From: Candidatus Saccharimonadota bacterium
Lineage (GTDB): Bacteria; Patescibacteriota; Gracilibacteria; Absconditabacterales; Absconditicoccaceae
Direction of reading: 5' to 3'
Length of the DNA: 32,000 nucleotides
NCBI GenBank assembly: GCA_000503875.1
Contig: CP006913.1
Location: 510,001 to 542,000, forward strand
Positions within the stretch are counted from its first letter, which is position 1; each line of letters opens with the position of its first letter. Below the pieces are notes generated by a model. The model saw nothing but the letters and a program-made list of their open reading frames with translations, searched no databases and was not told the origin of the DNA. Both the position numbers and the translations under genes were made by a program. Below are positions 1-26,461 of the stretch, in pieces.

Positions 1-59
1 TAATGGTAAAATACAAGACTCCGAATCCTGTGTTGTAGGTTCGATTCCTACTCTTCCTG
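1..59 (+). tRNA. 3' portion of a tRNA whose 5' end lies left of the window. The anticodon loop reads CU-CCG-AA, so it is probably tRNA-Arg(CCG).
   Basis: T arm GTAGG-TTCGATT-CCTAC at 35-51. Acceptor 3' strand at 52-58 plus discriminator G59. Anticodon stem 14-18/26-30 has one A-C mismatch, the loop is 19-25, and the variable loop is 4 nt. Confidence 0.6.
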
Positions 60-926: not shown

Positions 927-1541
927 ATGAATCTTATTGAACCAAAACGATGACTTGAATTAGTTCTATCTCTTCATCAAGCAATGCTTTCATCGCAACT
1001 ACGAACAGTTCTTACTCCAACACTAGCTGATGTTTTCGTATTCAGTTACCCTATCTATCTAATAGTTCTTTATAGTATAGGACGAATTAAAAAACAGATC
1101 AGTTATAAAGTTGCATCGCTCTGGATTTTTGCCAATGTGGTTGTTACCACTCTGGTAAACATAGGAATCCAAGCACTTGTCCAAAAATCCAGGCCAAATA
1201 TTGTCCTCTGATTAATTGATGAGAAAGTAGAAACTGTTCTTCATAAATTTTTACCTACAAGTAGTTTTCCTTCTGATCATGCTGCAGTTTCTATGAGTAT
1301 AGCAGTAGCAACATTCCTTCGATGAATACAAAAAAAAGACAGGAAATATATCTATTTTTCAATTATCTTATTCGTTTTTAGTTGTATTATGTGTGTATCT
1401 AGAATAGCTACCGCTGTACATCGACCAACAGATATTTTAGGTGGGATTTTGGTAGGGGCCATCATTCCTCTACTTCTTAGCACAAAAAAAATCTCCTCAT
1501 TTGGAGAGAAGATTTCTTTATGGATAGGAAAGAAAATTTAA
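927..1541 (+). CDS. PAP2-family membrane phosphatase (undecaprenyl-diphosphatase/BcrC-like), 204 aa
   Basis: ATG at 927 and TAA at 1539-1541. PAP2 motifs KSRPN, FPSDHA and SRIATAVHRPTD are present, with several hydrophobic segments. Three in-frame TGAs are read as Gly. Confidence 0.85.
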
Positions 1542-1555
1542 TTACTACTAATCAT

Positions 1556-4500
1556 TTAACTAGTTTTTTTCGCTTCATAATCTACTTTCAATTTACTATC
1601 AGCAAACGACACTTTTATAGTATTACTCGTATCATGACTAAATACTAAAATACCATTGTCTACTTTCATTTTAGTCATGTTTTTTATATTATCCAAAACC
1701 TTATCTCATAAGGTTATTTTACTTGCATCTTTTCATTGAAGATATACAAGCATATTTCTGAAATGCATAGGATCTTTTATAAAATCCAGAGTCGCAATAG
1801 TTGTTTCAGTTGTGATAGATTCTAACAACATATTAAAATTACTTTTAATAACTCATTGGCCTTTATCAAAATCAAACAATTGACTCATTGGAGCTAAAAC
1901 ACCTTTCTGATATTTTGATATAGGAGTATCTGTTTCTGAACTATCATATGTATACAAATCATCAATTTTTTTGAATTCATAATTTCCATATTTATCACTC
2001 ACATCCTTAAGATTATCTTTTAATCAATTTTTCACTCAATCAAATTTATCTTTTGCTTCTTTATCTACATCTGGAGTTGCTGACTCAACAACTTTAGGTT
2101 GTCATGAAACATCATTTTCTGATAATACATAATGAAAATTACCATTTCATTTACTTCCTCCCATAAGATATGCTGTAATAGCTTTGGCATAATCAAATTG
2201 ATTTGTAATACCAAATAAATCTTTATCAAACAATGTTTCTGTATTTTTATATCCTGATTTTAATTTAGAATCCGAATCAATAATTATTTTATGCGTATTA
2301 GTGTCTTCAATAATTGATTTCAATAATATACCAATAGATCCTTGATCAACATTTTCTTTTATTAATGGTTGTGAAGTTACCGTATCAACGACAAAAAGAG
2401 ATTCATAAGGAATTACCTTCAACTTATCTTTATTTGCCAAATAATAAGAACTCAAAAGATTAGCATCCAATAATTTAGTATTAATAACAGAATTTACTTC
2501 GAAATTTTCTATAATTGATTCTTTATTATTTTCTTGTTTAAATGTAGCTGATATAGTTTTCAAGTTATCAATAATATTTTTATCATCTAATTGTATTGTA
2601 GTAGAATTGTTTTGAATAAATTTAAAACCTTCCAAAACTTTTTTTTGATCAGCATCAAAACCATATTGTTTAACAAATTCGTTATTCAATACATCAGAGA
2701 ATCAAGGTATTTTACCAAACTTCTTCAATAATCCACCTTTTCCACCAAAAAGAGAATCCAAAAATTTCATCAACATTTTTCCTATAGGATGTTGAAATAA
2801 AATTCATACAACAGATTTAATCTGATCTTCAAGTGTTTTAGGTTTATCTATTCATTCTTTTTGTATATCAATAGTAGCTTTTTGTATAGCAATAATGTCT
2901 TTTAAAGTAATAATTTTAGTGAATAATTCAGAATCTTTATCTATAAACGGGGTATTTCAAGTTGTCAATGAAAATAATTTTTCTGTAACAATTTGTTTCG
3001 TCATAAAATCTACTCATAAGAAATTTGAATTTGTTTTTATTTCTCCTGATTTTATTTCTCCTAATTCTATTTCTCCTAAATAAGTCCTAAGAAGTTCTTT
3101 ATCTCAGCTAATTCATTCAATAAGAATTTTTATATAGTCATTTTTCTCTGATTCAGGATATATTGATATTTTTTTTGTTTCTTTATTTTCCTCCTTTGTT
3201 GTATCATCTGCTAATAATTCTGTACTTTTATCTATAATAACCTCTTTGGTTGCATTAATTTTATTCAAAAAAGTCTTTAAATTTTCTCATGTTTTTAAAT
3301 ACGATAAAATCTCTTGTGGTCTTTTTTGAAAAAGATATCTCAATCCTTCACTACCTCAATGACCATCTAGCTTCATTTTTCAAACAACATCCATATAATC
3401 TCAAGGATTTTCTTCTTTTACATCATCAAATAATGTTGATAATGATGGTGTCTTTTCTAATCATTGAGCTAAATCTTTATTTGGATCTCCAAAAGTAATA
3501 TATCAAGTTATTGTTTTTTCAGATCAAGGTTTAGTACAAGGAAGGGAAACAACTCTAGTACCATCTTGATAATGAGAAATTTTTCCTGTATCAGAAGATC
3601 TTGCATAGGAAAGATCAAGCTTTGAGAAATCTGGCGTATTATCATTAAGTTGAGATCTAAGGATAAGTTTAAATGTATTTATATGTTGCTGCGTTATAGC
3701 TATTTTCTCTCCTCTAAAAGTAATTTCTCAAGGAGTAAATCCTTTTTTTTCTATTTTAAGCAAATACATCATATCAAAAATATCATTGTACACTTGCTTA
3801 TATTGCTCTTTTTCTACAAATTGTTTAAAACTATCTGGTTTTTGATTATCGGATTCCAAAATAGATTTCCAAGAGATTGAAGATTGTTTTTCTGGCGATA
3901 ATTTAGCAGCAGTTATTGAATTAGTCTCTTTTATAGCTGTTTCCAATACATTATCTATATCCGATTTTCATTTAACATCTATTGGTGCAGTATTTATTTG
4001 AGATTGTACATTATTCAAAGACTTTGTAATAAAAGATACTAATTCTGCATCAGGAGTATTTTTTAAGTCTATTTTGAATTTATTAATTCATTTTTGCATC
4101 GATGTTTGTGCTAAGGGATGCATTTTTGAAATTTGATTTTCAATCTTAGAAATGGTTTCTTCTGCATCATTTCTAATTTTTGTATAATTTATTTTATTCT
4201 CTACAGTCTGATTTACTCACTGCAACTGAGCAATATTAGAAATTATTGATTGATCTATGTTTTTTTGAGATGTTTGTTCTGTATATTTTTTATCTTCCAA
4301 AGAATATTTATCAAAAGATATTTTAACTTCATTGTTTATTTTTTTAAAAAAATCTTTCATTGATTTTTCTCAATTAATATTTTGTGCAAAATCATTTATA
4401 TAACTGATATATTGAGGATATTTTTGTTTAAATGATTCTAGATTTGTAGATTGATAAAAATTGGTCAACCCAGAATTAGATCAACTTTTTCATTTATCCA

Positions 4501-4906
4501 AAAAATCCATATATAAAGTGCCAAGTTCCTCAGCAAAAGAAGAAATCTGTTCATACTCTTTGCTAGATTCTTCTAGTTTTTGTTTGTCTGTAATTTTTCA
4601 ATCAAATAATTGATATATCAAATCTTTATAAACACTATCATCTCTATTAATATGATCATTTTCCTTATCCATTTTCCATAATGTAAGCAAAAAATTTGCT
4701 AATAATTTTTTTTCTTCTGGCGTGCAAGCAGAAAGTGTTGTTATATTAGCCTTTATATCAGATAAGACAAAATCAAAAACACGCTGATTTTTTTCCAAAG
4801 AAACAAGAGAATTCAAAGATTCCTTATAATCAGAAATTTGTTGAGGATTCATTTTTATTTCTGGTATTTTATCTTCAAAATGTTGTTTGTTTTCTACGTT
4901 TGTCAT
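1556..4906 (-). CDS. Large orphan protein L1, 1116 aa, with no recognised domain
   Basis: My codon-by-codon scan of this frame finds 0 TAA/TAG and 29 in-frame TGA. The frame joins track ORFs 2147-2689, 3728-3946 and 4598-4906. ATG at 4904-4906 is preceded by an in-frame TAA at 4916-4918, and the TAA stop is at 1556-1558. The protein is K/E/N/D/S-rich, with no signal peptide or TM segment seen. Confidence 0.85.
3038..3082 (-). repeat. Three tandem copies of a 15-bp unit inside L1, encoding a GEI pentapeptide repeat
   Basis: The copies are tatttctcctgattt, tatttctcctaattc and tatttctcctaaata (plus strand). On the minus strand they translate as LGEIELGEIKSGEIK. Confidence 0.8.
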
Positions 4907-4922
4907 AATAAATTTTTAAGAA

Positions 4923-5201
4923 TTAAATATCTGCCAATAATTTATTCAAATCATCTTCTTTTGACTGTTCTTGCAATTCAACTGCTTGTAACTTTTGCAA
5001 AAAAGTTTGGCTTTTGAGAAGATATTCTTGGGCCTTTTGATCATTTACTTGTTTAATGCTTTCAGCAAAAATATGTTGCAATCCAACAATTGTCTGATCA
5101 TTCAACACATTATGTTCTATCAACAACTTCAATCCTGCAGCCATTGACCATTTTCCATCTAACGCAGTAAGAAGTTTGAGAATATATTCTTTTTTGTTCA
5201 T
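4923..5201 (-). CDS. Small helical orphan protein S1, 92 aa, paralogous to S2 (8803-9093)
   Basis: Complete ATG-to-TAA ORF already intact in the track. It lies 16 nt upstream of the L1 start and 24 nt downstream of the protein A stop. Its N-terminus MNKKEYILKLL matches MTKKEYVLKVL of S2. Confidence 0.85.
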   Translation of the reverse strand: MNKKEYILKLLTALDGKWSMAAGLKLLIEHNVLNDQTIVGLQHIFAESIKQVNDQKAQEYLLKSQTFLQKLQAVELQEQSKEDDLNKLLADI

Positions 5202-5225
5202 GATAATAATGAATAATAAAGGGTA

Positions 5226-6344
5226 TTAGTTAGAAGCAAGAAGATGTTGTTTCTGTTGTACATTCATTTCTTGCGCTCTCATAATATATTCTTTCCATTC
5301 TTTTTTTTCTGAATAATTAGTATAAAGCTGATTAAGAGCAAATTTTGAATCATTTTTCGTAAAGAGATTAAGAAATGTTTTTGATTTACTTAAAGCAATA
5401 GCGACTCTATTTTCTTTGAAGATTTTTTGTATATCATCTTTATATTGCAATCACAAAGTATCAGATACATCCATAACAACAGAATTAGCTTTTTTCTCTT
5501 TATAATAAGCATATGACTGAGATGTTGTTTTCCAAGGTCAATGTTTTATTATGATTTTTCAATTTTCTAATTTATAATACGTACGTTTAAGAAAATTTTG
5601 TTGTACTCTTTTTCAAGCTCTATTAATTATTTCTACGCCTTCCAGAAACATATGTGTTCATAAAGGTTTTTTTAATACTTCCCAGGATTCAAATTTTTTA
5701 TAGTCTTGTGGAGGAAAAACTAAATTTTCCTCTTCTTCTAGATCTTTATCTGAATCATCTTCCGGAGTTTTAATATCGTCATCTTTTTCAGGTGTTTTTT
5801 GTGGAATCTTCTGAATATCAGGGACATTTCTACCACTCATACTCACATCTAATGCAGCAAATCTATACGTTCATTGTTCATCTGTTTTATCAACAGGAAG
5901 CACATCAAAGTGAATCTTATCTTTTATGGTAGTAAGAAGTGTTTGAGGTAATTGATTTAGCAACGTCATTGCTCTAAGCCATGCCTGAGCAGTATTTCCT
6001 GTAGAAAGATCAGGATTAGTAACGATTCCTTTTTCTTTTAATGACGATGCCATAGAGTTAGCTTCTGATTTTTTGTTTTCAGCTCAACCAGTGGACCATC
6101 AAATACTATCAGCTCTTGCTCTTACCGTAAATAAATCAACATGATTACCAAAAGCAGTATGAAAATTAACAATATTATCTATTTCTGATTGTGGTAACTT
6201 TTCAGCAGCTCCTACCTCTTGATTTGAAGCACCAGCTTCAATTTTTTTCTTTAAATCGGAAAATTCTCATTGTGTAGAAGACACTACTCAATCTACATCT
6301 TCTTGATGATTATTTGTATATTCAACAGTTTCTCCAAATACCAT
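5226..6344 (-). CDS. Orphan protein A, 372 aa, first gene of the A-S1-L1 operon
   Basis: Joins track ORFs 5226-5450, 5658-5846 and 5871-6053, all in one frame and separated only by TGA. ATG at 6342-6344 has an in-frame TAG upstream at 6375-6377, and the TAA stop is at 5226-5228. A central acidic/Lys-rich linker reads KTPEKDDDIKTPEDDSDKDLEEEE. No signal peptide seen. Confidence 0.82.
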
Positions 6345-6378
6345 ATAGGAATAGTGATAGAATAAAATTCTTACCTAA

Positions 6379-6406
6379 ATTATACAAGATATTTTGAAAA
6401 ACACAA
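6379..6406 (-). promoter_or_regulatory. Putative sigma70-type promoter for the A-S1-L1 operon
   Basis: Minus strand reads TTGTGT, then 16 nt, then TATAAT (-10 at 6379-6384). It lies about 35 nt upstream of the ATG at 6344. AT-rich DNA produces such matches easily. Confidence 0.35.
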
Positions 6407-6435
6407 AAGCTATCCAAATATACAATCAGATTAAT

Positions 6436-6463
6436 TTGACTTTTTATATAAAAGAATTATAAT
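6436..6463 (+). promoter_or_regulatory. Putative sigma70-type promoter for the CAP-domain gene
   Basis: TTGACT at 6436-6441, a 16-nt spacer, then TATAAT at 6458-6463. This is 29 nt upstream of the ATG at 6492. Confidence 0.4.
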
Positions 6464-6491
6464 ATAAAAGATTTATTATTTATGCGAAAAT

Positions 6492-7082
6492 ATGAACGCA
6501 AAAAAAGCAATAATTATAGGAAGTTTAGTAGCAGCAACAATATTGCCTTTTTCTAGTAATGGACAACAAACTACAAACAAAACAAAAAAAGATTTAATAG
6601 AAAATATAAATGGAAAAAATAATAAAATCAATGAAAAACCAGCTAATGTCGTAGATTATCAAAAACAAACACTCCTCTATATTAATGAAATAAGAAAACA
6701 ACATAAATTATCACCGCTAAAATATGATAAAACATTGGAAAATCTAGCACGAGAACAATCAAAATATCTGAAAGAAAATAGACCAGTTTGACATAAATTA
6801 GAATCTGGAGATCATTTTGATAAAAAATATAGCTTACCTATCCACAGGATAGAAAAAGCCCGATGAGAAAGATTAGATTTATTTTGAGAAGAAGATCCTT
6901 GATCAGAAGTAATCGTAACAATAGATCAAAATTCCATAAAAAGACTTGTCGATCTCCGAATGGAAAGTAAAAAAGGACATAGAGAAAGAATATTAGGAGC
7001 ATATACTCATATGTGAGTAAGTTATGAAAAAGGAAGTAATTTTTTTATTGTCGTTTTTGCAAGAGAAAAACCCCAAAATTAA
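6492..7082 (+). CDS. Secreted CAP/SCP (YkwD-like) domain protein, 196 aa
   Basis: Signal-peptide-like N-terminus MNAKKAIIIGSLVAATILPFSS. CAP-like segment INEIRKQHKLSPLKYDKTLENLAREQSKYL. Five in-frame TGAs are read as Gly, and the TAA stop is at 7080-7082. Confidence 0.75.
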
Positions 7083-7134
7083 AAGAAAAATATTATGAAT
7101 TAAATTCAGGTTCTTTTGCATAAAAAGAAAAATA

Positions 7135-8778
7135 TCTATCTTTTTGAATTCATTCTTCAGTAGATTGAGATGCGGTTTGCTTTCATTTAATCAAATCCCC
7201 CACAGAAAAATCTATTTTTTTAACAAGTTCTGAATCTTTTCCATTTGGAAGTTTTTGTAAAAGATAAGTAATTGATGTCAATGCTCTACAGATAACTAAA
7301 TCAGATTGTTTTACATCATTCCAACTCTTTGTTTTTTCTTGCATAGAAGTAACTAATGTATTTACATCAAAAGATAATTGTTTTGTAGAAACTAATTTTT
7401 GTATTCAATCGATTAAATTCTTTTTATCTTGTGTGAAATCTTTGCCTTCTTTGATTCAGACATAGTCAACGCCAGCACTAATAGCAATTGGAATTTTTTT
7501 TATGTCATTTACATCAAGAATTCTTTTTTCATAGGCATCAAATATTTTTTTTACAGAATCCATTTTTTGTTTTCATGATTGAGAAAGTGTATATTCTCAA
7601 AAATCAAAAAAATCAAGTCAACGAGCTGATTCTGGATTTGCACTACTACTATTATCTAAAATTCAATTAGTTGTTATTTGAGTAAGTACTTCATCTTTAT
7701 TATTTGGCTCAATTAATCATGTTTCTTTATTTACAAAAGAATTAGCAATAACTTTTAAAGAAACATCTGGTCTATTTCATAATTTATTTGAATCCAAAAC
7801 AATATGCGTTCAATCTATAGAAATTCCAGAAGATATTATTTCTGATTGATTTTCTCGTATAATTCAAGATTTTCCTTGTCATTCAGTATGTCAACGTAAT
7901 TGTTTTTCTCCTATAGAAACAAGTATATTTGCTCAAGGTCAATCTACTCAGGCTACTTTTAAATCTAATGACAAAGTATCTTGAGTCCATAAAACAGATT
8001 TTTCATTTTGACCAATTTTATCAAGTTTTGGATTATAATCAAAAAATACCCTTCAATAATTAGATCATTTTTTACCATCTATTCATGCCGTATTAGATCA
8101 ATCTCAAACTGCTAATGTAGTTTGTTGAGGTAATATACGAGCATCTGATGTATTAGCAAATAATTTATAGAAAGCTTTCGTTGTATCCTGTAAAGAATTA
8201 AGTAATTGTTTTTGAGGAAAACTATATCTTTCATATGCTTGTTGTGGCGTTAATGATTCTTGTGTTGATGAATCCTTTTGCTTTTTGCCAATCGATTCAA
8301 AAAAATCTTTTAAATTTACTATATTTCAATTATCATCTTTTCAGGTTTCTATATATTTTTTAAATTTATTAGCATCACCTAAACCTAAATCAGAATAAAA
8401 GGCAGAATTTTTAAAAGAGTGTAATGTCTTTACCATAGCCAAAGAATAAGCAAGATTTGACTTTTCTTCAGAAGAAAAATGCTGCACATCCTGTTTAGTC
8501 AATCAATCAATAGGTTTACTAATTCCATAGGTTTTTAGAATATTATTGATTTTATCTTTTATTTCAGGGCTTGAAAGCAAATCAACCTTAGTTGAAGAAG
8601 CATTAGTAACATTAAATATTTTAGAAAAATCGATAGATGTTTTATTTTCAAGATCTTTAGCAATATTCTTATTATTTTCTTGAGAATCAGTTACTTTATT
8701 AAGTTCTTCTTCATTCTTTATTTCTGGAGTTTCTTTTTTGACTTCTGGAGTTTCTTTTTTAACTTCTGGAGTTGGCAT
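7135..8778 (-). CDS. Large orphan protein L2, 547 aa, with no recognised domain
   Basis: My scan of the frame finds 0 internal TAA/TAG and 25 in-frame TGA. ATG at 8776-8778 and TAG stop at 7135-7137. The N-terminus carries a PEVKKET tandem repeat. Gly-rich middle stretches include AVGDGSNTAGIDGKKGSNYG and VAGVDGPGANILV. No signal peptide. Confidence 0.83.
8721..8775 (-). repeat. About 2.7 tandem copies of a 21-bp unit encoding the heptad PEVKKET at the L2 N-terminus
   Basis: Plus-strand unit cttctggagtttctttttt(g/a)a is repeated. The protein begins MPTPEVKKETPEVKKETPEIK. Confidence 0.85.
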
Positions 8779-8802
8779 TATAAAATTATTAAATAATAAA
8801 AG

Positions 8803-9093
8803 TTAAAAACTAGACAAAAACTCATCTAATTTTTGTATATCTTTTTGATCTGCTTCTTTAGATAAACGTTCTGTTTCTTGTAAGGATTGTAAATAAGAAG
8901 TTAATTGTTGAGCTTTTTGAGTATTCTGATATTGTAAAGTGCTATGTATCGATTCAACACATTTTTGATACATATCTTCAATATATTCATCCGTAGCCGT
9001 TCAAGAAAGTATTTTCTCTTTTATAGAAACAGCTTCTGTCCAATAAGGGAGAACTCTATCCAACACTTTTAGCACATACTCTTTTTTTGTCAT
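8803..9093 (-). CDS. Small helical orphan protein S2, 96 aa, paralogous to S1
   Basis: ATG at 9091-9093 and TAA at 8803-8805, with one in-frame TGA at 9001-9003. Too short for the track because of that TGA. It lies 24 nt upstream of the L2 start. The first 50 residues share 17 identities with S1 in an ungapped hand alignment. Confidence 0.82.
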
Positions 9094-9121
9094 TTCTTCA
9101 TATAAAAAATAAACATACTCG

Positions 9122-9150
9122 ATTATATATCCTCCGCTTTAAAAAAGCAA
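9122..9150 (-). promoter_or_regulatory. Putative sigma70-type promoter for the S2-L2 cassette
   Basis: Minus strand reads TTGCTT (9145-9150), then a 17-nt spacer, then TATAAT (9122-9127). It lies about 29 nt upstream of the ATG at 9093. Confidence 0.45.
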
Positions 9151-9217
9151 AAAAACAATCATATTCAGATTTTTTAAATTGACAAAACATAAGAAACATA
9201 TAAAATATCTAAAATAC

Positions 9218-9248
9218 AAAAAAACGGTAGGGAAAACCTACCGTTTTT
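9218..9248. terminator. Bidirectional intrinsic-terminator-like hairpin
   Basis: Stem CGGTAGG (9225-9231) pairs with CCTACCG (9237-9243). It is flanked by 7 A upstream and 5 T downstream, giving a U-tract on either strand that is longer on the minus strand. Confidence 0.55.
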
Positions 9249-9268
9249 CTAAACAAAAATTTTACAAT

Positions 9269-9300
9269 AAAAAAAAGCTATCGGGTAATAACTCGATAGC
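9269..9300 (-). terminator. Intrinsic terminator, minus-strand orientation
   Basis: A 10-bp stem (9277-9286 with 9291-9300, one G-U) with loop AATA. On the minus strand it is followed by 8 U (the A-run at 9269-9276). Confidence 0.6.
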
Positions 9301-9466
9301 CAGACTTCTGGCACCAGCTGACTCCTTATTACTATGGAGGGTATAGAACTAGTAACGCGCGCCACTACTAATTTTATATCCTCAATAATTGTTACAGAAA
9401 AAGTTCAAAAGGCTGGTTCCAAAAGTATATGCACATCATCCACTTGGGTAAGCTTCCTATGGGCGA

Positions 9467-9500
9467 ACACTTTTGAATGCAAAAGTGTAATAATTTTTTT
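9467..9500 (+). terminator. Terminator-like hairpin, plus-strand orientation
   Basis: A 9-bp stem ACACTTTTG/CAAAAGTGT (9467-9475 with 9480-9488). A run of 7 T at 9494-9500 follows after a 5-nt spacer. Confidence 0.4.
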
Positions 9501-9652
9501 GCTCCATGAGCGTTCTATCTTTTTGTATATTTTTGTTTACGACTCGTTGATAAGATTCATTACTCAAAATACAAGTAATCCAAGTAAAATACCTCTATAC
9601 AATCGTTAGCACATGTTACAAAAAAACAATTTAATTTTATTGACAAATCAAC

Positions 9653-9678
9653 AAAAAAATCCCGCTTTCACGGGATTT
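9653..9678 (-). terminator. Intrinsic terminator downstream of lemA
   Basis: An 8-bp stem AAATCCCG/CGGGATTT (9657-9664 with 9671-9678). On the minus strand it is followed by a U-run (the A-run at 9653-9659). Confidence 0.7.
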
Positions 9679-9705
9679 ATCTTTAAGTATATTATAATTA
9701 AATAT

Positions 9706-10281
9706 TTAGAATTGTACTTCTGGAGCAATTTCTGCTCATTCTTCTGCATCAAACAAATTAGCTTTTTCAAATCCAAATAATTTAGCAACTATATTTGTTG
9801 GAAAAGAACGTAACATAATATTAAATGATTTAACTACAGTATTATAATTCATTCTTTCTACAGAAATTCTATTTTCTGTACCTTCAAGTTGTACTGTTAA
9901 ATCGCGGAAAGCTTCAATAGATTTTAATTCTGGATAATTTTCAGTAACCATTAATAATCTTCAAAGAGCAGAAGATAATTCTCATTGTGATTTTTGATAC
10001 TGTGCAAGAGCATCAACATCTTTGATATCAATATTGGTTTTTGTAGCATTTGCTCTAGCTTCAACAACAGCAGTCAATACATTTTGTTCTTGAGCAGCAG
10101 CTCATTTTACCGTATTAACCAAATTAGGAATCAAATCAGCTCTTCTTTGATATACATTTTCTACTTGTGACCAAGCTGTTTTAACTGATTCATCACCATT
10201 TACCAATCCATTATATTTGCTTGTCAACCAAAGCCCTAGTACCAATACTACGGCAATAATAATCAATCGTGTCTTTTTCAT
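9706..10281 (-). CDS. lemA: LemA family membrane protein, 191 aa
   Basis: N-terminal TM segment [19 protein letters not shown]. LemA-like stretches [32 protein letters not shown] and [15 protein letters not shown] at 10279-10281 and TAA at 9706-9708. Four in-frame TGAs. Confidence 0.9.
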
Positions 10282-10357
10282 TTACATATTGTACAAAGAA
10301 TAAAATACCATGTAATTATAAATAATAGTCACAACAAATTCAACCAGATTTTTTTTA

Positions 10358-11206
10358 TTAATCTCCTGCTCCTCAACCACCAGAACTTCCTCATCATCAA
10401 CTAAAACCGCCTCAACCAAATCATCATCAACTAAATCCACTACCTCCACGTCATGGCAAAAATCCCGTAAATCCAAATACCAATCATGCAATTATTCAAA
10501 TCAATAATAAGGTACCAAGCCAAACAAGAAGAACAATAACCACACCAATAGCCAAAGGAATTGCTATTTTTTTTACAGATTTAGGAATTTTTTTTTGTTT
10601 AATTAATGAAGCTAAGATAAATCAAAGGATCATACCCAAAATCCAATATCATTCAGATTTTTGTTCTGAAGAAAAACTAATAGTTTTTGATAAGGTAGCT
10701 GCTTCATCCGTATCTATTGCTTCACTACATCTTTCATAAAATATACGAACCGCACCAGCAAAATCGCCACTATTTACTAAAGGACGAATATCATTTTCTA
10801 TAATACGCTTTACCAATGCATCAGGCAAATCTCACTCCAATCCATATCAAACAATAATTCTGATTTTTTTTTCTTCTGTAGATATCAATAACAACAATCC
10901 ATTATTTTTTCACGCCTGCCCTATCTGATTTTCATTAAATAATTTCATTCCTATATCAAACAGTTCATTTCCATTTCTATGAGGAAACAAAACAGCAACA
11001 AGTTGATTCGTAGTGCTAGAATTGTACGCTTCTCATAAGGAAGATAATTGTTGTAACGAAGATTGATCCAATACATTGGAATAATCCATAACATATTGAG
11101 AAATCTTCGGTAAATTCATTGGATCAACAGATGATTGCGCAAAAACAAAACCACTTCCAAAGACAAGAATCACTATTCCCAATAATTTTTTAAAGAAAAC
11201 ATTCAT
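10358..11206 (-). CDS. TPM-domain (YgcG-like) membrane protein with a Gly-rich C-terminal tail, 282 aa
   Basis: Signal peptide MNVFFKKLLGIVILVFGSGFVFAQS. TPM motif IIV-G-YGLE-G-DLPDA with both G encoded by TGA. TM segments are followed by the tail RGGSGFSGGGFGGGGFSGGGGSSGGGGAGD, in which 8 Gly are TGA. LemA is the classic operon partner of TPM-domain proteins. Confidence 0.88.
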
Positions 11207-11235
11207 CAAAGCATAAAGCTAAGAAGTAAAAGTTA

Positions 11236-12591
11236 TTATTCTCCATACCCAGTTTTTCCTGTTTCTACAAATTTCATAGTTTCTTTGTGGAACATAAGTT
11301 CTACTTCACCTACAGGACCATTTCTATTTTTTCTAATACATACATCAGTAAGTCATTTTTTATCGGTGTCAGGATCGTAATAATCTTCTCTATGAAGCAT
11401 CATTACTGCATCTGCGTCTTGTTCAATAGATCCTGATTCTCTCAAATCAGAAAGTTGGGGTTTCTTATCGACTCTCTTTTCTACTTCTCTAGAAAGTTGT
11501 GATAATGCTATTATAGGAATTTCAAGTTCTCTTGCTAATTCTTTTAATCATCTAGATATTTCACCAATTTCTTGTACTCTATTTCCAGAATATCCCGTAG
11601 AACTACCACTCATCAATTGGAGGTAATCGATAATCACTAAATCCAATCATTCTTTGATTTTCAATCTTCTAATTTTTGATTTCAATTGAGGAATAGTCCC
11701 AGATCACTTATCATCTATAAAGATTTTAGTACCAGAAAGATGTTCCATTGCTTCTCCTATATTTGAAAAATCTTCTGATTCTAATCTTCCTTTAGTTATT
11801 TTTGTCATAGAAACACCAGAAACAGTTGAAAGTATTCTGTCTACAATCTGTTCCGCACCCATTTCAAGAGAAAACATAGCAACAGCCTTCTTTTGTTGTA
11901 CAGCAGTATGCTCCAAAATATTGATAGCAAATGCTGTTTTACCCATACTTGGACGAGCTGCAATAATAATTAGCTCTCAAGGTTTAAATCAGCTTAACAT
12001 TTCATCCATATTATGATATCCTGACATAACCTTTTTATCGTTAACTTTTTCTGGATGATCAACAATTTCCATATAATCCTCTACTCTACTATCTAACAAT
12101 TCTTTGATAGAATGCACTTCATCTCACCCTGTATTTTGAGTAAGATCAAAGATTCTTTTTTCAATAGTTTGTAAAATATCAAACGTTTCTTTCTGTTCAT
12201 AAACATCTCCGATAATTCTTTGAGAAACTTTGAGAATATTTCTCAATATAGATTTTTCTTTTACGATTTTTGCATATTCATCCGCAGATGACGAAGTAAG
12301 TAAGAATCCAGATATTTCATACAAATAATCAGTTCCTCCAATAACATCTGAAACTCAATCTTTAGAAAGTTGATCTGCCAAAGTAAGCACATCTATGGTT
12401 TTACGAGCTGCCCAGAGTGTCTTTATTCCTCTAAAGATAAAAGCATGTTCTTTTTGATAAAAATCTTCTGGTGCCAAACCAATTCCTTCACAAATATACA
12501 AAAGTTCAGCATCCATAATAACACCACAAAGAATTCCCTTTTCCGCATCAATATTATGGGGAGGTAATTTAATATCTTCAAGACTAACCAT
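11236..12591 (-). CDS. dnaB: Replicative DNA helicase DnaB, 451 aa
   Basis: N-terminal [14 protein letters not shown]. Walker A region [22 protein letters not shown] with the two G encoded by TGA at 11977-11979 and 11989-11991. Also IIDYLQLM and LSQLSREVE. The whole frame was scanned with no TAA/TAG. ATG at 12589-12591 is chosen over an alternative TTG at 12600. Double TAA stop at 11233-11238. Confidence 0.95.
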
Positions 12592-12675
12592 AGTTCTCAA
12601 TTACAGATAAAATTCGATCAAAATAATTCTAAATCAGACTATATAACATTGAAAACCTTTTTCAAGGGATTTTTC

Positions 12676-12700
12676 AAAAAACACAGTCTAAAACTGTGTT
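12676..12700 (-). terminator. Intrinsic terminator between the nucleotidyltransferase gene and dnaB
   Basis: Stem AACACAGT/ACTGTGTT (12680-12687 with 12693-12700), followed on the minus strand by a U-run. Confidence 0.6.
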
Positions 12701-12733
12701 TCTAACATTTTTTCCACATTTTTTCCCACAAAA

Positions 12734-13633
12734 CTACTCCCATAAATGATCAGGATATTCTTTTTGAGTAATTAATTTTTGAATAGATGAAACAACTTGT
12801 GGTTTATCTTCAGGATACGTTACTCAAAACCAAGAAGAATCATTTGGAATTATTTTACAAATTGATTGATTATTCTTTATTAATTCATCCAAAATAGCAG
12901 GAATATAATATTCTGAAGTAAGTTCTTGACCGTGAGCTTGTAAAAATTTTTTAAATCAGATTTCTATATAATCCAAAATAGATGGCATAAACCCGAAAAA
13001 ATTCATAGAAACTAAGGTATCGGGTGCTAGAGAAAACCATTGATCGTTTTGACCAATATATCAGATTTCTCAATTTTTTGTATGAATATTCTTGGTTTCT
13101 ACTATATCAGAAAGAACATCACCATCAGCGCTACAAATTCCACGGTTTACACTACCAAAGTCAGAAATAGTGTTTTTTAAACGATATCCCACTAATGCAT
13201 AGGTATTTGGATCTTGATTTGTTGTCAAAAATTGACTTAGTTTTGCAAAAGCATCTCTTCCATAAAAATCATCAGCATTAATAGCAGCAAATGGAGCATC
13301 TATAACATCTTTTGCAACAAGCAACGCATGAGCTGTTCACCAAGGTTTAACTCTCCCTTCGGGAACAGAAAATCACAAAGGTAGATTATCCAATTCTTGA
13401 TACACATATTCAACAGGCAAAAACTGCTCAAATCTATTTCAAAAAAACGTCTTAAAGTCTGATTCTATACTTTTACGAATAATAAATACTACCTTCCCAA
13501 AGCCAGTTTTGATTGCATCAAAAACAGAGTAATCAATAATTACTTCTTTGTTTGGACCAATAGGATCTATTTGTTTTAATCATCAGTAACGACTACCCAT
13601 TCCTGCTGCCATAACGACCAAAATTGGTTTCAT
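12734..13633 (-). CDS. Sugar-phosphate nucleotidyltransferase family protein, 299 aa
   Basis: N-terminal AAGMGSRY-G-LKQ. Motif RVKPW-G-TAHA with G encoded by TGA, plus INADDFYG. ATG at 13631-13633 and TAG at 12734-12736. Confidence 0.8.
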
Positions 13634-13664
13634 AGATATATTTTTTGAAATATAAAGAGAAATC

Positions 13665-14531
13665 TTATGCCAATTCCTTTAGTTTCTGTTTAGCTTTTTC
13701 ATTACTTGGTTCATATTCCAATACTCTAAAATAATATTTTTTTGCAGATCAATAATCTTGTAATTCCAAATACAAATCTGCCAAAGTAAGAAGATATGAA
13801 GGTGTTGTTGGTCTAAGTTTTACTATTTTTTCCATCATTTCAACTGCTTCTTTTTTTCTATCAGTGTTATACAATACTTCTACCATACTCACATAATATT
13901 TAGGATTTGATTGATTAATTGATATTGCTTTATCTATAAGCAATTCTGCTGTTTCAAAATCCCCAGTAATGAGATACATTTCTCCTATTTGCCAAATTGC
14001 TTTATGATCTTGTGGATCAATTTCTATAATTTTCTTAAGTAACGAAAGGGCTTTTTTATAGTTTCAAAGATTAAAATAAAAATCAGCCAATAATTTATTC
14101 AGATCTCTATCATTAGGATCAATTGCTAATCATTCTATAATTTTTTTCTCATATTCTTCCAATTTTCATTCTTTTCTAAATACCAAAGCTTCATAGACTA
14201 TTTTCTCTATCATTTTTTTCTTTTTTTTGGAAAATTCTCTATCAACAAGTTCTTCCAGAGAAGGCTTCTCCTGTATTTCTTCTAAAGAATTTTCCTCAGA
14301 TAATTCTTGTTGAGCGGCAGGTACTTCTTCAGATTGATAGGTATTTACTAAATTTTCTTGTAAAATTTCATTTCTAATTTTACTTAATGTTTTTTCACTA
14401 AGTATTTTATTCCAAAAAACAATAATATACTTAGTTACATCCTTAAATAGAAAATAAAAAAGGAATCCCAAAGGAAATACTAATAAGACTATTGTTAATA
14501 CAATCCAAGAAAACACACCAACTTTCAACAT
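13665..14531 (-). CDS. Membrane-anchored TPR-repeat protein, 288 aa
   Basis: N-terminal TM segment VFSWIVLTIVLLVFPLGFLFYFLF, then an acidic linker, then TPR-like repeats (ALSLLKKIIEIDPQDHKAIWQIGEMYL and AVEMMEKIVKLRPTTPSYLLTLADLYL). Track ORFs 13749-13979 and 14166-14531 are in the same frame and joined through TGA. The gap between them was scanned and has no TAA/TAG. Confidence 0.82.
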
Positions 14532-14552
14532 GGTAATATATTTATAAATAAA

Positions 14553-15386
14553 TTACTTTTTTATTGCAGATATAAGAGCAACAGGTACTCTAAAGAATCA
14601 ACCATCTTTTGTTCTTACACTTACATCATTGGTCATAATATTATATGAAGTAACAAAACCACACATTTCACAGTTACTCTTTAGACAAACTTCTGATCCT
14701 TTTGGTGGAAATTTTTTACTTTCTTCAGCATATTGTTCTAATTCATACATCAAACAACACTTTAATTTACCACATCTTCCTTTGAGTTTTTCAATATCTC
14801 TTCATTCGAGGTTTTGAAGTACAATATTTTCTATTTCAATACTTGGAAGCGGTCTTGTGCTCTTACAACAAAGTTGAATTCCATTGCATCCTACAATACA
14901 ATCTGTTGCTGGAGACATTTTTACCATATCTCTTGCGCCAACTTGAAACAAAAATATATTTTTATTCAGAGTTTGTCTAAGTTCTTTTACAAAATCAGAA
15001 AACACATATCTTTCCTCTGCATAAAAATAGAAATAAATTTGATCAGCAAAGACATGGTACCTAGCAGTTACTGGTGTTGACGTAGAAAAATATTTTTTAA
15101 ACATTTTTTTAAACAAAGGGAATATTTGCAAAGAAAATACTTGTTGTTCTTCAAAAAATTTCTTTTCATCACCAGCTAAAATACGATGAAAAATTCCTTT
15201 TCTGTCAGTAGGAACAGTATGTCCTAGAAAAGTTCCAATAGTCAAAGCATTACTACCAGTTTGATCAGTCGTTTCATAAACAATTTTATCTCCAGCTTTT
15301 AAGGAAGACAAAACTTCTTTATCTTTCATTTCCAAAACAACATTCTTATTGGTATACCAATCTAATACATAAGCCATATTTGACAT
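14553..15386 (-). CDS. PSP1 C-terminal domain protein (YaaT/RicT-like), 277 aa
   Basis: Cys-rich PSP1 signature: GCNGIQLCCKS, then a TGA read as Gly, then KGRCGKLKCCLMYE. ATG at 15384-15386 and TAA at 14553-14555. Confidence 0.8.
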
Positions 15387-15442
15387 CAAGTATATAATAA
15401 CAAATAAATTGTGCTAAACTTAAAATATTTATATTCAACACT

Positions 15443-17308
15443 TTATGCAGTATATTCTTTCATTAATGATTCAAATTCTTCCCTTGTTAAGTATTCTTTA
15501 TCCAATAAGAAAACAGAAAGTTTTTCCAAAATAGATTTATTTTTTTTGATAATATCTTTTGATTTTTTATAGCAATCAGACATATATTCATGAATTTTAT
15601 GATCAATACGTTGAGATATTTCTTCACTATACGGTTTAACAAATCTATAATCATCCGGATCGGTTTCTCAATAGAAAATAGTTCCCAAGTCCTCATCCAT
15701 ACCATATTTAGTAAGCATATCTTTAATAATCAATGTAGCTTTTTCAAAATCATTAGATGCTCATGTAGTTATTTCGTCTTTTCCAAAAAATATTTCTTCT
15801 GCTGCTCTTCATCAAAGCAAAGATACAATTTGATCCAAAAATTTAGCTTTAGAATAGAGATTCTTATCTTCTTCAGGTATCATCCAAGTTACTCCCAAAG
15901 CATGACCTCTACGGACAATAGATATTTTTTCTACAGGATCTGTTTGAGGAAGAAAATAAGCAGTTACTGCGTGTCATAATTCATGAAAAGTAACTATTTG
16001 TTTTTCTTTTTCATTCATAGATTTGGTCTTTTTTTCTGGCCCCATAAGAACTTTTTCCAATGCATATTCAAAATCCTGAACTTCAATTTGACTTCTATCT
16101 TCCTTCGCTATTTTCAACGAAGCTTCATTTACAATATTTTCTATATCAGCTCAAACTAAACCACTTGTTCTTTTTCCTAAAGATTCAAGAGATACTTTTG
16201 TATTGATTTTTTTGGATTTAAGATAATAGGTAAATATAGCAACTCTTTCTTCATAAGTTGGTCTAGAAACCATTATCTTTCTATCAAATCTTCCTGCTCT
16301 AAGCAATGCTGGATCCAATATATCAGGCCTATTAGTTGCAGCAATAACAATAATATTGGTTTTATTATCAAATCCATCCATTTCTGTTAAAATTTGATTT
16401 AATGTTTGTTCTTGTTCTTGATGTCAACCAGTATGACCAACTCCTCTTCTTCTTCCTATAGCATCAATTTCATCAATAAAAATAATTGCCCTTCCAACAG
16501 CTTTTGCCTTACCAAAAAGTTCTCTTACTTTTGCTGCTCACATACCAACAAGCATTTCCATAAATTCAGATCCTGAAACACTAAAGAAAGGTACATCAGA
16601 TTCTCCTGCAACTGCTCTAGCAAGAAGTGTTTTACCAGATCATGGTTCTCCAAAAAGCAGTACTCATTTTGGATGTCTTGCTCAAACTTTATGATATTTT
16701 GCCGGATGTTTAAGATAATCAACAACTTCTGATAATTCGTTTTTAACTTCTTCCATACCAGCAACATCAGAAAATTTAGTCTTATTTTTCGTTTTATTAT
16801 CTAATTTACCAACTTTAACATTAAAAGGGAAACCAGCTCATCCCTTTGGCATCATAAATTTAAAAAATATAATAAACACTAAAAAGAACAAGAAGATAGG
16901 ACCTATTTCTTCCATAAATTTTTGTAAATATGATTTTGTAGTATATTGTATATCAACAAGTACAGATCATGTCAAAGAAATTCAAAGATCTGGTAAAGAA
17001 GTATCCATAGGTTTCTTGGTAGCATATACATCAAAAACATGTTCTGTATATGTTTTATTCATACTCATCAATGAAGTATTGGTACCAGAAGAGACAAATG
17101 TGTATCCCATTAAGTCAACACCATCTTTTAATTCTATTTTTGAAAAATCTCCTGCTGTATAATGATCAAGAAAATTATTTAAAGAAACTTCTTCTTGTTT
17201 TTGAACAACTTGAACAATATCTGATGTTACATCATAATTTTTATAAAGCTGTAATAATCAGCTTACAATAAGGGCAAAAAAGATAAAAAAGAGTATTCAT
17301 TTTTTCAT
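15443..17308 (-). CDS. ftsH: ATP-dependent zinc metalloprotease FtsH, 621 aa
   Basis: N-terminal TM segments. Walker A GEP-G-SGKT (TGA at 16640-16642), [29 protein letters not shown], zinc site HEL-G-HA (TGA at 15974-15976), LL-GG-RAAEE (two TGAs at 15809-15814) and TT-G-ASNDF. The whole frame was scanned with no TAA/TAG. Confidence 0.96.
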
Positions 17309-21694: not shown

Positions 21695-21699
21695 TAATT

Positions 21700-21771
21700 C
21701 AGGGCCGGCAGGAATTGAACCCGCGACGCGGAGCTTTGGAGACTCCCGCTCTACCACTGAGCTACGGCCCT
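21700..21771 (-). tRNA. tRNA-Trp, anticodon CCA
   Basis: The reverse complement folds as a cloverleaf. Acceptor AGGGCCG/CGGCCCT, D arm GCTC-AGTGGTA-GAGC, anticodon arm GGAGT-CTCCAAA-GCTCC, T arm GCGGG-TTCAATT-CCTGC, discriminator G. CCA 3' end is not encoded. Confidence 0.92.
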
Positions 21772-21776
21772 ATTTT

Positions 21777-23808: not shown

Positions 23809-24939
23809 TTAATAATTATTTTTTGTACTAAATGTTGTTTGTAGCGTAAATTGATAATTTTGAATAGATCATTTTAACTTTTTTTGCCATAATCATGCAT
23901 ATAGTTTTGTTTTCAATGATATAGTGAAATAAGGTGCTATTTGAAATTCTCATTCAGCCCAAGATAAATTAGGATTTTTGGTTGGATATATTGTAATATT
24001 TCGATCGGTAACAGTAATACTTCTATCAAATAGATCCACCCAACCAGTTAAAACATCCTGTGCTGATAAAGGCAAACGATATCATGAATATATATTTCCC
24101 AAAGCATTTCAACCGCAAACAAATCACTGAGAATAATCACAAGTCCAAGTATCAAGGACTCAATCATATACACCAGAAGATGTTGCTACAACAAAATCAT
24201 GATTATTTCCTGCATCAAATGATCTGAGTTTTAGCATTTGTAATGCATACAAAAATTCATTATCTCAAGAAATTTGACCATCTCAGTTCCAATCTCAACT
24301 TTCAATAAGAGCCCTTCTGATAAAGACTCTGTACTGTTTATCTTGAGAAATTAAATATAACTCTTTGACTCAAGTAGCTTGTAAAACAGCATCTGGTCAT
24401 TTTCCTAAATCAATATCATCAGAATCATTAATAGCAGAAAAATTAAAGTCTGAATTATCTTTAACATCCAAAAATTGTAATGCATATTGACCAAATGATT
24501 GATGGGTTCATGTTGCACATCACGTCAAAAGATTTGGCGTTTCAATTACATATTCAAAACCTGTGCTATATCACGTAGAAGAACTACAATGATATAAAGC
24601 GTGTTGTCATGTATTTGTTTTAAAGGTATTTTTATTACCAAATGTTGTAAACAAATCACAATATCAATTTATACCAACATTCCAAGAAAACGAACTTAGC
24701 GTATCACAACCAACGCGACTACGATTAAAATATTCTTCATAATCTATAGTATAATCTCTCAATAAAAGATTTACTCTTTCAAACATATAATAAGTAGTTT
24801 CGAGCAATTTCGCTCTTGCTTGAAAAGAATATCTAAAAGTAATTATACCTAAATATGCATTAATAACGATTGTCATCAATAAAAAGAATCCAGTAATAGA
24901 AAGGAGTATTTCCAATAGAGTAAATCACTTTTTTTTCAT
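23809..24939 (-). CDS. Type IV prepilin-like (pseudopilin-like) protein with an unusually large 376-aa body
   Basis: Begins MKKK-G-FTLLEILLSITGFFLLMTIVI, a class III signal peptide (G|FTLxE) followed by a hydrophobic helix. The -1 Gly is encoded by TGA at 24925-24927. The frame was scanned with no TAA/TAG. TAA stop at 23809-23811. Confidence 0.85.
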
Positions 24940-24964: not shown

Positions 24965-26461
24965 TTATTGCAATAAATCTTTATTTAATTCAGATCTTGT
25001 AGAAGGCCCCATCCATCATCGAGTTTGCGGTTTCTTTTCATAACCTTTTAATAGATTCTTTGATAATTGATATTGATAAAGTGCTTCTATAGTTTGGGCT
25101 GAATATATGCCATCAATTATTCATTTATAATGTCATAATTTTGTTAACAATTGTTGCAGAATAGTAATATCATTATGTGATTGTCCTTTTTTAAAAGCTT
25201 GAGTGAATTTAAATCATTGATCAACAATGATAGATGGCGTTTCAACAAGAGTTGTTTGATCTGATGTTGGCAATAATTGTTTTTTATAATCATTTAAAAG
25301 AACTTGTTTTTTTTGAATAACTGCATTTTTAAATGTTGATGTTATATCTTTTTGTAATTGAATAATTAATGGTATCCATTTTGTGATAGCATCTTTAAAT
25401 TGAACAGAATTAATAGTTCAAGAATTTTGTAATGATACTGTTTTAGAAAAGTTTTTTATCTGGTTTGTAATGGTAGCTAATTCTTTTAAAAAACCAGTTG
25501 AAGAAACAAAAGAAGAACATTGTACTTTTCATAAAGGCGCATAAGTAGAAGAAAATAACTGAATATTTTTTGTTATTTGAGTAAATTCTTTATTGTCATA
25601 CCACTTATTAAGAAGCATATTCATTTTTTCATCAAATTGCATTTCATATAATCCCAAAGCATAAATTTTTTGCTGATGTAATTCCAATCCTAATGAAGGC
25701 AATATTTTATTCCTTTTAACTTCATTATTGATAATAGTTTGAAATGTAGAATCCAATCCAGAAAGAGATGCTTTTTTCAAAACATATAATTTAGAAAAGA
25801 ATTTATTTCAAGAACCAGCTAATTGGATTTGATAATTCAATAAATCTGAATTTAATTTTTTGTATTGTTCATCTATATTTTTAATTGTTTGAATATTATT
25901 ACCTATAGTTACCAATAAGTCTTTATTTATTTCAGAATAGTCTTTAACATCTTTAACAAACTTTTCTATTTTATTTTCATAAGAAGATTGAAACTGTGTT
26001 GCTAAATTTTTTTGATTAAGAATTAATTGATTAAGTGATGTTAATATACGAGTTTTCTCAGTTTCATATGTTTTTCAATTAGGAAACAAAGATACCTTAG
26101 TATCTTGGTAAATACGTTGTTTTTGTTCTATATCCAAAGCATCTGCATAAAACGTTGCATAAGCATTCAAAAATCAGATTTTTAGATTTTTATTATCATT
26201 TTGCATTTGTTGTAAAAGCGATGTATCACTAATTACTCACAAACAAACTAATCCTTGATAATTTAACGATGTAAGAAAACCTCCTACAGAAGTTTGAAAA
26301 TTTTGATACACCTTATTGTAAGAAGAATCAAACATATTTTCTATAGTAATTTTTTCTTGACTAATTGTTTCTAAAAATGTTTTTTGAGATGTCGAAGCAA
26401 ATACAGAAATTCAAAACAATAAAAAGCTGAAAAAGAAAAAACTTTTTATAATTCTCTTCAT
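24965..26461 (-). CDS. Secreted protein with a C-terminal peptidoglycan-binding (PG_binding_1-like) domain, 498 aa
   Basis: Signal peptide MKRIIKSFFFFSFLLF-G-ISVFAS. A long helical, Q/N/K-rich middle region. The C-terminus GQSHNDITILQQLLTKL-G-HYK-G-IIDGIYSAQTIEALYQYQ matches the PG-binding repeat pattern. The stretch 24965-25530 was scanned and has no TAA/TAG. Confidence 0.75.

Follow-up and report, generated by a model that had tools for sequence, protein, structure and literature searches.

A family of small helical proteins encoded directly upstream of diverse leaderless partner proteins in UGA-recoded Absconditabacteria and SR1-type bacteria

What is the role of a small protein that is encoded twice in one chromosomal region, each time directly upstream of a larger protein of no described family? 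This question is raised by a stretch of 32,000 nucleotides (nt), positions 510,001 to 542,000 of contig CP006913.1 (here called the window), from the complete genome of candidate division SR1 bacterium RAAC1_SR1_1, phylum Candidatus Absconditibacteriota. The small proteins, S1 and S2, precede the partner proteins L1 and L2 on the same strand, and a further protein, A, is encoded upstream of S1; each of the five is annotated as "hypothetical protein" in public records. The two cassettes were found to be members of a lineage-wide, undescribed module of a small S protein and its partner, which makes the observation more general than was seen in the original prediction, made from the letters of the window. 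The genes concerned are the following (aa, amino acids).

8803..9093, minus strand: S2, 96 aa, AHB41304.1, P148_SR1C00001G0512, heads cassette 2; one in-frame TGA, at codon 31
8779..8802, minus strand: S2-L2 junction, 24 nt, without a terminator-like site
7093..8778, minus strand: L2, 561 aa, AHB41303.1, G0511, leaderless partner of S2; 25 in-frame TGA
6492..7082, plus strand: CAP-domain protein, G0510, secreted; convergent with L2, between the cassettes
5226..6344, minus strand: A, 372 aa, AHB41301.1, G0509, leaderless; 24 nt upstream of S1
4923..5201, minus strand: S1, 92 aa, G0508, also DIC40_04085 in a second deposit of the genome; cassette 1
4907..4922, minus strand: S1-L1 junction, 16 nt, without a terminator-like site
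1556..4906, minus strand: L1, 1116 aa, AHB41299.1, G0507, leaderless partner of S1

On the minus strand the order is S2, L2, A, S1 and L1, with the plus-strand CAP gene lying between L2 and A. The flanks consist of ordinary chromosomal genes: one side encodes LemA, a TPM-domain protein and DnaB, the other PAP2 and Nth. All gene models of the window were made with genetic code 25 (UGA = Gly). This code was adopted because the longest open reading frame (ORF) grows from 207 to 1120 aa once TGA is read as sense and because TGA codons align with conserved glycines in the Walker A motif of FtsH (GEPxSGKT) and in DnaB motifs; ORF calling with table 11 gave short fragments only and was rejected. The translations of L1 and S2 are identical to their GenBank entries, and the GenBank entries of A and L2 are same-length members of clusters with the code-4 calls of this genome. 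The coordinates of S1, S2, L1 and A and the two gaps between S and L had been read correctly in the original prediction, but L2 had been given 547 aa. A second deposit of the same genome, GCA_003543185.1 (a third-party annotation (TPA) entry, 'Patescibacteria group bacterium'), carries a table 11 annotation in which L1, L2, A, DnaB and other proteins are broken into short fragments.

The proposed paralogy of S1 and S2 is firmly borne out. BLASTP aligns them with 31/93 identities (E=4e-10), and their Smith-Waterman score of 101 compares with 31.8+-5.5 for shuffled sequences (z=12.5). The 17 ungapped identities counted by hand in the first 50 residues are exact, with W18 and ESI at 47-49 present in both. 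A hidden Markov model (HMM) of the S family recognizes S1 at E=1.3e-27 and S2 at E=2.5e-27, and the window contains exactly two S genes. An exhaustive profile search over 1.84 billion cluster representatives (50% identity clusters) retrieved 493 S clusters at E<=1e-3 and 138 at E<=1e-10; a word-indexed search had retrieved just 13 relatives of S1 and 4 of S2. Nearly all members are stand-alone proteins of 90-97 aa with a strongly conserved N-terminus, MTKKEY[IVL]xK[LIV]L. As predicted, the S proteins are acidic and helical. The isoelectric point (pI) is 5.6 for S1 and 5.0 for S2, the family median is 4.9 and 89% of the members lie below 6. The AlphaFold2 (AF2) model of S1 (pLDDT 80, pTM 0.73) is all-helical, with five helices at residues 3-14, 19-30, 35-51, 55-73 and 79-91.

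No described family was found for any of the five proteins, in agreement with the original prediction: Pfam, NCBIfam and PADLOC gave zero matches for S1, S2, A, L1 and L2, and PHROGs gave none with known function, only weak matches to PHROGs of unknown function. Pfam searches with 83 diverse S members revealed no recurrent family, sequence and profile searches of the PDB found no relative of S, and Foldseek found no meaningful match to the S1 model (best E=2.6 in PDB, 1.1 in BFVD). The 2.9 million viral contigs of IMG/VR contain no S relative. A phage-borne S module was rejected, given the lack of viral-contig relatives, of any PHROG of known function and of a fold match in BFVD. To judge from these searches, S is a large undescribed protein family without a Pfam model or known relatives.

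How regularly an S gene is followed by a partner gene was determined in loci scanned around S genes, 37 in GTDB species representatives and 80 of the 139 metagenome matches, which were re-annotated with code 25 (individual loci carry L numbers below). Adjacency was counted where at least 500 nt of downstream sequence was available. In 105/106 loci a same-strand ORF starts between -23 and +57 nt after S, with a median gap of 20 nt, and the ORFs that follow belong to at least 8 unrelated families; the prediction that S-like genes are consistently followed by large, mutually non-homologous ORFs thus holds in these loci. The nearest upstream same-strand gene lies at a median distance of 193 nt from S and within 60 nt in only 6% of the loci. 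S therefore normally opens its transcription unit, and the A-S1 order of the window is an exception. The S-partner module is defined here as an S gene followed within ~60 nt by a same-strand leaderless ORF in a UGA-recoded genome, and this describes both window cassettes. The module occurs between the LemA and PAP2 genes (window), directly after secY (oral SR1), and beside pseudouridine synthase, PrsW or Dus genes. In view of these varied contexts, S is linked to its partner and not to its neighbourhood. Several genomes carry at least two S copies. In-frame TGA codons are present in 105/105 partner genes and viral relatives are lacking, and the S family therefore appears confined to UGA-recoded contigs of the Absconditabacteria/SR1 type.

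Unusual arrangements were also observed. In locus L022 (8001-10900) an S gene and its 666-aa partner are followed in tandem by another S gene and a 181-aa ORF, and L035 (7591-11679) has two consecutive S genes followed by a single L1-type partner. In metagenome-assembled genomes (MAGs) of human-oral SR1 (L026-L034, ~6470-16000) the S gene after secY is followed by a 1494-1737-aa partner with a Gly-rich, beta-like middle, and the gene after the partner encodes a surface protein with a signal peptide and DUF11 repeats.

Clustering of 109 partner proteins yielded about 8 families and 6 singletons. The main groups are the following.

171-aa partner family: 32 members, 165-181 aa
L1 superfamily, with L1 of the window: 28 members, up to 1140 aa
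PG_binding_1-bearing partner family: 20 members, up to 938 aa (full-length 496-938 aa)
oral-SR1 partner family: 14 members, 1494-1737 aa at full length
three small partner families of the S2 slot: 3, 3 and 2 members

The partner families are mutually unrelated by BLAST and the main groups also by hhalign, which joins L1 with the cluster-3 partners (99.7%, E=3e-26) and finds the other compared groups unrelated. Hidden homology among L1, L2 and A was looked for with both programs and rejected. L1 is homologous to the partner at L035 (E=2e-38). It has a conserved core at ~residues 640-960, with the motifs HPIGKM..FLD.LFGGKGGL and YL.GGSKG.G.FHYV.SEN, and a variable N-terminal part. A word-indexed search for L1 homologues returned only L1 itself, its candidate list being saturated by low-complexity words. 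L2 is a member of orphan partner family 5. Its only homologues found are those at L061 and L062 (25% identity over 509 aa, E=3e-18), and the three proteins make up one small S2-slot family. Neither L2 nor the L1 core nor the 171-aa family matched the PDB in sequence and profile searches. Near the start of the L2 gene, three tandem 21-nt repeats (window 8710-8772) encode N-terminal heptads, TPEVKKE/TPEIKNE, and these may be a site of repeat-number variation. The 171-aa partner, present at L024, L030, L037, L038, L040 and ~27 metagenome loci, has no database match and is accompanied by its own clade of 95-aa S proteins.

It had been claimed that L1 and L2 have no recognisable domain, signal peptide or transmembrane (TM) segment, and this was confirmed. 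L1, L2 and A lack a signal-peptide-like N-terminus and a TM-like segment. Their maximal hydropathy in the first 60 aa stays below 1.0, compared with 2.3-3.0 for control proteins with signal peptides from the same window. None of the S partners has a signal peptide. Some partners in relatives carry recognizable domains. PG_binding_1 (cutoff 23) was detected in direct partners at L080 (28.2 bits) and L112 (23.6 bits), and at 40.8 bits in L029+2, a downstream paralogue of the direct partner at L029. One singleton partner, which has a central hydrophobic segment, ends in a zinc metalloprotease domain resembling anthrax lethal factor (ATLF), with an HExxH motif (E=5e-14). MORN repeats (E=5e-30) occur in a partner and TPR repeats are also found among the partners. 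A sub-threshold OmpA-like region (E=1e-4) is confined to the unrelated partner at L047; an OmpA-C-like domain in L2 and the S2-slot partners was not supported, since hhalign of the L2 family against E. coli OmpA-C gave E=0.045 and a probability of 1%.

S proteins and partners are inherited together. The S clades correspond to the partner families with an adjusted Rand index of 0.94, and the members of a partner family go with one S clade in 14/14, 32/32, 20/20 and 26/28 cases. This near one-to-one match implies that the pair is inherited and duplicated as a unit. An exception is the S2 clade: in it, five S proteins that are 59-68% identical are followed, in one and the same chromosomal slot, by partners from three unrelated families. 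Identities between the window and its relatives L047 and L044 are the following.

flanking genes: 68-97%
S1 and S2: 59-70%
A: 41-46%
CAP-slot gene: 35-37%
L1 and L2: 27-35%

The island thus evolves far faster than its flanks. A comparison of the near-identical strains L047 (6433-9711) and L048 (4657-7932) shows how L1 diverges. Genes other than L1 are 99-100% identical, with synonymous divergence (dS) <=0.02, whereas the L1 homologues are 88% identical overall. In L1, dS reaches 0.57 in residues 300-600, residues 800-1092 are identical, and the ratio of nonsynonymous to synonymous divergence (dN/dS) in residues 1-700 is 0.14-0.52. The combination of a high dS and a dN/dS under 1 indicates that divergent alleles were imported through recombination, and not positive selection on point mutations; in these near-identical strains L1 forms a recombination mosaic.

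Not every gene of the island belongs to the module. Protein A does precede S1-L1 in the window, as had been noted, but it is absent from the conserved unit. Homologues of A were found only at L044, L047, L048 and L021 (37-46% identity), the immediate clade of the window, and L046 (1875-2999) has S1-L1 without A. Elsewhere the slot upstream of S is taken by SecY or by a conserved but unrelated gene whose only match is partial, to a DNA methylase. An A-like upstream gene as a conserved third component was rejected on account of this clade restriction and these unrelated occupants; A is a lineage-specific accessory of cassette 1, outside the conserved core. The CAP protein of the window (Pfam CAP, E=5.8e-13) has a signal-peptide-like N-terminus, and in all close relatives its slot is filled by a reverse-strand secreted protein. 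The CAP gene is one of the genes of this fast-evolving island and no component of the S-partner module.

The explanation favoured here for S, put forward tentatively, is that it may act in the cytosol as a chaperone or targeting adaptor dedicated to leaderless proteins, destined for the surface or the host, that would leave the cell by a non-Sec route. It is suggested by S being small, acidic, helical and encoded immediately before its partner, by the presence of one S clade per partner family while the large partners diversify rapidly by recombination, and by the partners being diverse, without a Sec signal, and in some cases equipped with cell-wall-binding or toxin-type domains. Secretion chaperones and targeting factors are typically small and acidic, with a helical fold. 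S would bind its cognate partner, probably via the polar, helix-prone N-terminal region of the latter, would keep it export-competent and would hand it to a Sec-independent export route. The partners would then be cell-surface, cell-wall-associated or host-directed proteins that are under strong diversifying pressure and are exchanged by recombination. A slight likeness among the N-termini of unrelated partner families (similarity 36.0, against 31.7+-0.7 in composition-preserving shuffles) is only a lead towards a putative shared N-terminal signal. The host-interaction role considered conceivable in the original prediction would draw on the partner domains in relatives, not on the content of L1 and L2. 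Precedent for small helical targeting factors is provided by the Lap proteins (PMC10801868). The Absconditabacteria (SR1) include the only described predatory bacteria within the candidate phyla radiation (CPR), and most of their large proteins have no recognisable features (PMC8080830).

Several findings weigh against such a chaperone or adaptor. At L044 (4863-8363) A is directly followed by an L1-like gene without S1, and S is therefore not always required. No extracytoplasmic domain is recognisable in L1 or L2, an OmpA-like candidate in L2 having failed, and the AF2 model of L1, built from a 6-sequence alignment, is unusable (pLDDT 42.5), its Foldseek matches being meaningless. The commonest partner, of 171 aa, is conserved (82% mean column identity) and not hypervariable. 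The variable part of L1 is its N-terminal two-thirds, where chaperone binding would be expected, and no statistically solid docking motif shared by the partners was found, their weak N-terminal likeness perhaps partly reflecting local composition. Leaderless peptidoglycan-binding proteins also exist as phage endolysins, so that a missing leader does not prove a dedicated secretion route. Nor was a recurrent export machine found among the scanned neighbours of the modules: those scanned with Pfam are unrelated housekeeping genes, most other neighbours having been compared by BLAST clustering only, and genes resembling PilB and PilC lie 3-4 genes away from modules of the L1 type only. A bolder version, in which S is the targeting factor of an undescribed Sec-independent export pathway found only in SR1/Absconditabacteria-type bacteria and each S-adjacent gene encodes a substrate, is rather unlikely. 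For Vampirococcus, the paper on its genome names only Sec and type IV pili, besides many large proteins that could not be recognised (PMC8080830).

The same data were considered under other explanations. S could be a stoichiometric subunit of a stable heteromer that is exported or displayed as a whole, like PE-PPE or EsxA/EsxB, or that works inside the cell. Co-inheritance of one S clade with each partner family and the tight operonic spacing would suit such a complex, and the helical S together with the N-terminal 385 residues of L1, predicted to be helical, is compatible with a shared bundle of the kind known from Lap-LXG and PE-PPE (PMC10801868). A single S fold would have to pair with at least 8 unrelated partner families, including a 171-aa protein, while the L1-like gene of L044 does without S1, S has neither a WXG motif nor a WXG100 match, and no component of a type VII secretion system (T7SS) was seen in any of the loci; a stable heteromer is accordingly regarded as unlikely. 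Both proteins might instead stay in the cytoplasm as an undescribed defence or sensor system, or as a pair serving as cytoskeleton or scaffold, with pressure from phages or hosts driving the diversification of the large subunit. The lack of signal peptides and TM segments in S and partner, and of a linked export machine, is as expected for a cytoplasmic pair, and hypervariability and recombination are typical of defence genes as well. S1, S2, A, L1 and L2 match no PADLOC model of known anti-phage defence, the module sits in core chromosomal synteny and not in defence islands, and peptidoglycan-binding domains and a toxin-type ATLF domain beside a hydrophobic segment make little sense in the cytoplasm, so that we consider this quite improbable.

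That S acts on the downstream gene and not on its product, as a transcription factor, an anti-sigma-like protein or through translational coupling, is very unlikely. S does lie directly upstream of its partner as the first gene, its extreme N-terminus MTKKEY is very conserved, and in the model it is conceivable in principle that the three short helices at the start make up a small bundle that binds DNA. Yet an acidic protein with a median pI of 4.9 would be unusual among DNA binders, a helix-turn-helix family was matched by at most 2/83 S members, and comparison of folds did not bring up any regulator. Around the two window cassettes no conserved DNA repeats or operators were found, and a correspondence of S clades with partner protein families is more natural for specificity between proteins. 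Of the pairings named in the original prediction, chaperone or adaptor with cargo fits best, and immunity protein with toxin is disfavoured. Immunity genes normally follow the toxin gene and co-vary with the toxin domain. A small protein adjoining a large one, with a toxin-type metalloprotease in at least one partner, does resemble such a pair, in which S would neutralise the toxic partner in the producer cell. S is nevertheless encoded upstream of its partner, S proteins of the S2 clade stay 59-68% identical while three unrelated partner families alternate, and most partners lack a toxin domain, the ATLF domain being found at the C-terminus of a lone singleton. Gene order and the conservation of S across partner replacement thus make an immunity function extremely unlikely.

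The S-partner module is a new variant of a known gene organisation, that of a small adaptor and a variable cargo. None of the Lap/LXG, PE-PPE, type VI secretion (T6SS) adaptor and VirE1-VirE2 systems is homologous to S, and they are nearest analogues only. Lap/LXG of type VIIb secretion (T7SSb) and PE-PPE share with the module an alpha-helical protein of ~100 aa whose gene directly precedes that of a large, leaderless and polymorphic protein (PMC10801868; 10.1101/2022.07.06.499029). Further similarities with Lap/LXG are the single-membrane (monoderm) bacterium, cognate small proteins for each substrate family and a helical N-terminus of the substrate. In contrast, S proteins match neither WXG100 nor Lap (DUF3130/DUF3958): for WXG100 (PF06013) there was no match to S1 or S2 even at E<=1, and it is absent from the families matched by the 83 S members. 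The S consensus has no WxG turn, although W18 is conserved, and the AF2 model predicts five short helices and not the helix-turn-helix hairpin. There is one S per partner and not two Laps. LXG (PF04740) is not matched by L1, L2 or 26 other partner-slot proteins, and the order of parts in LXG toxins is the reverse of that in L1, with its variable N-terminal and conserved C-terminal part. In the annotated loci no EssC/EccC FtsK-SpoIIIE ATPase is encoded within ~8 kb of S genes, and a literature search found no report of a T7SS in Patescibacteria.

T6SS adaptors (DUF4123/Tap-1, DUF1795/Eag, DUF2169) resemble S in being conserved small proteins encoded beside unrelated, mostly hypothetical effectors, and their genes, like those of T6SS chaperones, serve as markers for the diverse effectors encoded downstream (PMC7714669; PMC4557670). 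There is no homology, and VgrG and PAAR, found near T6SS adaptors, are missing from the S loci examined. The T6SS is a diderm machine and is not expected in SR1/Absconditabacteria-type bacteria. VirE1-VirE2 of the Agrobacterium type IV secretion system (T4SS) and the class I chaperone-effector pairs of type III secretion systems (T3SS) each have a small acidic cytosolic chaperone whose gene immediately precedes, within the same operon, that of its large leaderless substrate, and S shares the acidity, the small size and this position before a leaderless partner. The T3SS class I chaperones (CesT/SycE) are, unlike the all-helical S model, alpha/beta dimers with a five-stranded sheet; S has no Pfam, PDB or fold match to the CesT family, and T3SS or T4SS genes are not linked. 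Polymorphic toxin-immunity cassettes have in common with the module a fast-evolving large protein, variation driven by recombination and an occasional toxin domain (ATLF), but the gene order and co-variation of S are wrong for such cassettes and most partners lack a toxin domain.

Signals for transcription were looked for around the cassettes, with the following result.

9217..9251, minus strand: strong intrinsic-terminator-like hairpin, 15-bp stem and T run, between LemA and S2
9678-9657, minus strand: terminator-like hairpin directly after LemA
9122..9150, minus strand: candidate S2-L2 promoter, TTGCTT-N17-TATAAT, motif match only
9185->9158, minus strand: second candidate S2-L2 promoter, TTGTCA-N16-TATGAT, motif match only
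1492..1507, minus strand: terminator-like hairpin downstream of L1

The near-consensus promoter predicted for S2-L2 (9150->9122) has a perfect -10 box, but its -35 box matches at only 3/6 positions, and promoter-like matches in this AT-rich region are not enriched (53, against 54.5 in shuffles). The predicted hairpin at 9217..9251 would insulate S2-L2 from the upstream LemA gene. The spacer between S2 and LemA (9094-9705) is unusually long, 612 nt, and contains two terminator-like hairpins and a 91-aa ORF (9334-9609, plus strand) that is probably spurious. No credible RNA element was found in it, the Rfam L20-leader reaching 26.6 bits against a gathering score of 58.7. DNA repeats common to both cassettes, which might bring about cassette exchange, amounted to short chance-level matches only.

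Further observations concern the surroundings. The TPM-domain protein (10358-11206, minus strand) has a Gly-rich tail, …GFSGGGFGGGGFSGGGGSSGGGGAGD, and 17 TGA codons that encode most of the tail glycines. A 376-aa protein (23809-24939, minus strand) shows by eye a type IV pilin-like N-terminus, MKKKGFTLLEILLS…, in which TGA encodes the glycine at the predicted site of prepilin cleavage; immediately upstream of it is encoded a 508-aa protein with an N-terminal hydrophobic segment (24965-26491, minus strand). Part of a tRNA occupies the left edge of the window (1-59), and a tRNA-Trp (CCA) is located at 21699-21772 on the minus strand. To the left of the window, beyond Nth (L005 15199-19854), genes were found for a Holliday-junction endonuclease, a PilB-like T2SSE protein, a PilC-like T2SSF protein, a 240-aa protein and Lgt. 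This PilB/PilC-Lgt block is syntenic with L1-type modules in the distant relatives L001, L009-L012, L018 and L035.

Whatever the role of S, a protein family of at least 493 clusters without a Pfam model has been defined, and a recombination-driven hypervariable island has been documented within conserved synteny. S could serve as a small and easily detected lineage-wide marker for leaderless, fast-evolving proteins, some of them with cell-wall-binding or toxin-type domains, and would so provide a testable list of these. Should S be the targeting factor of such an export pathway, this list would amount to a catalogue of the leaderless surface and attack proteins with which these predatory or parasitic ultra-small bacteria recognise and damage the host, and S would point to a route of export so far overlooked in bacteria whose genomes are minimal.

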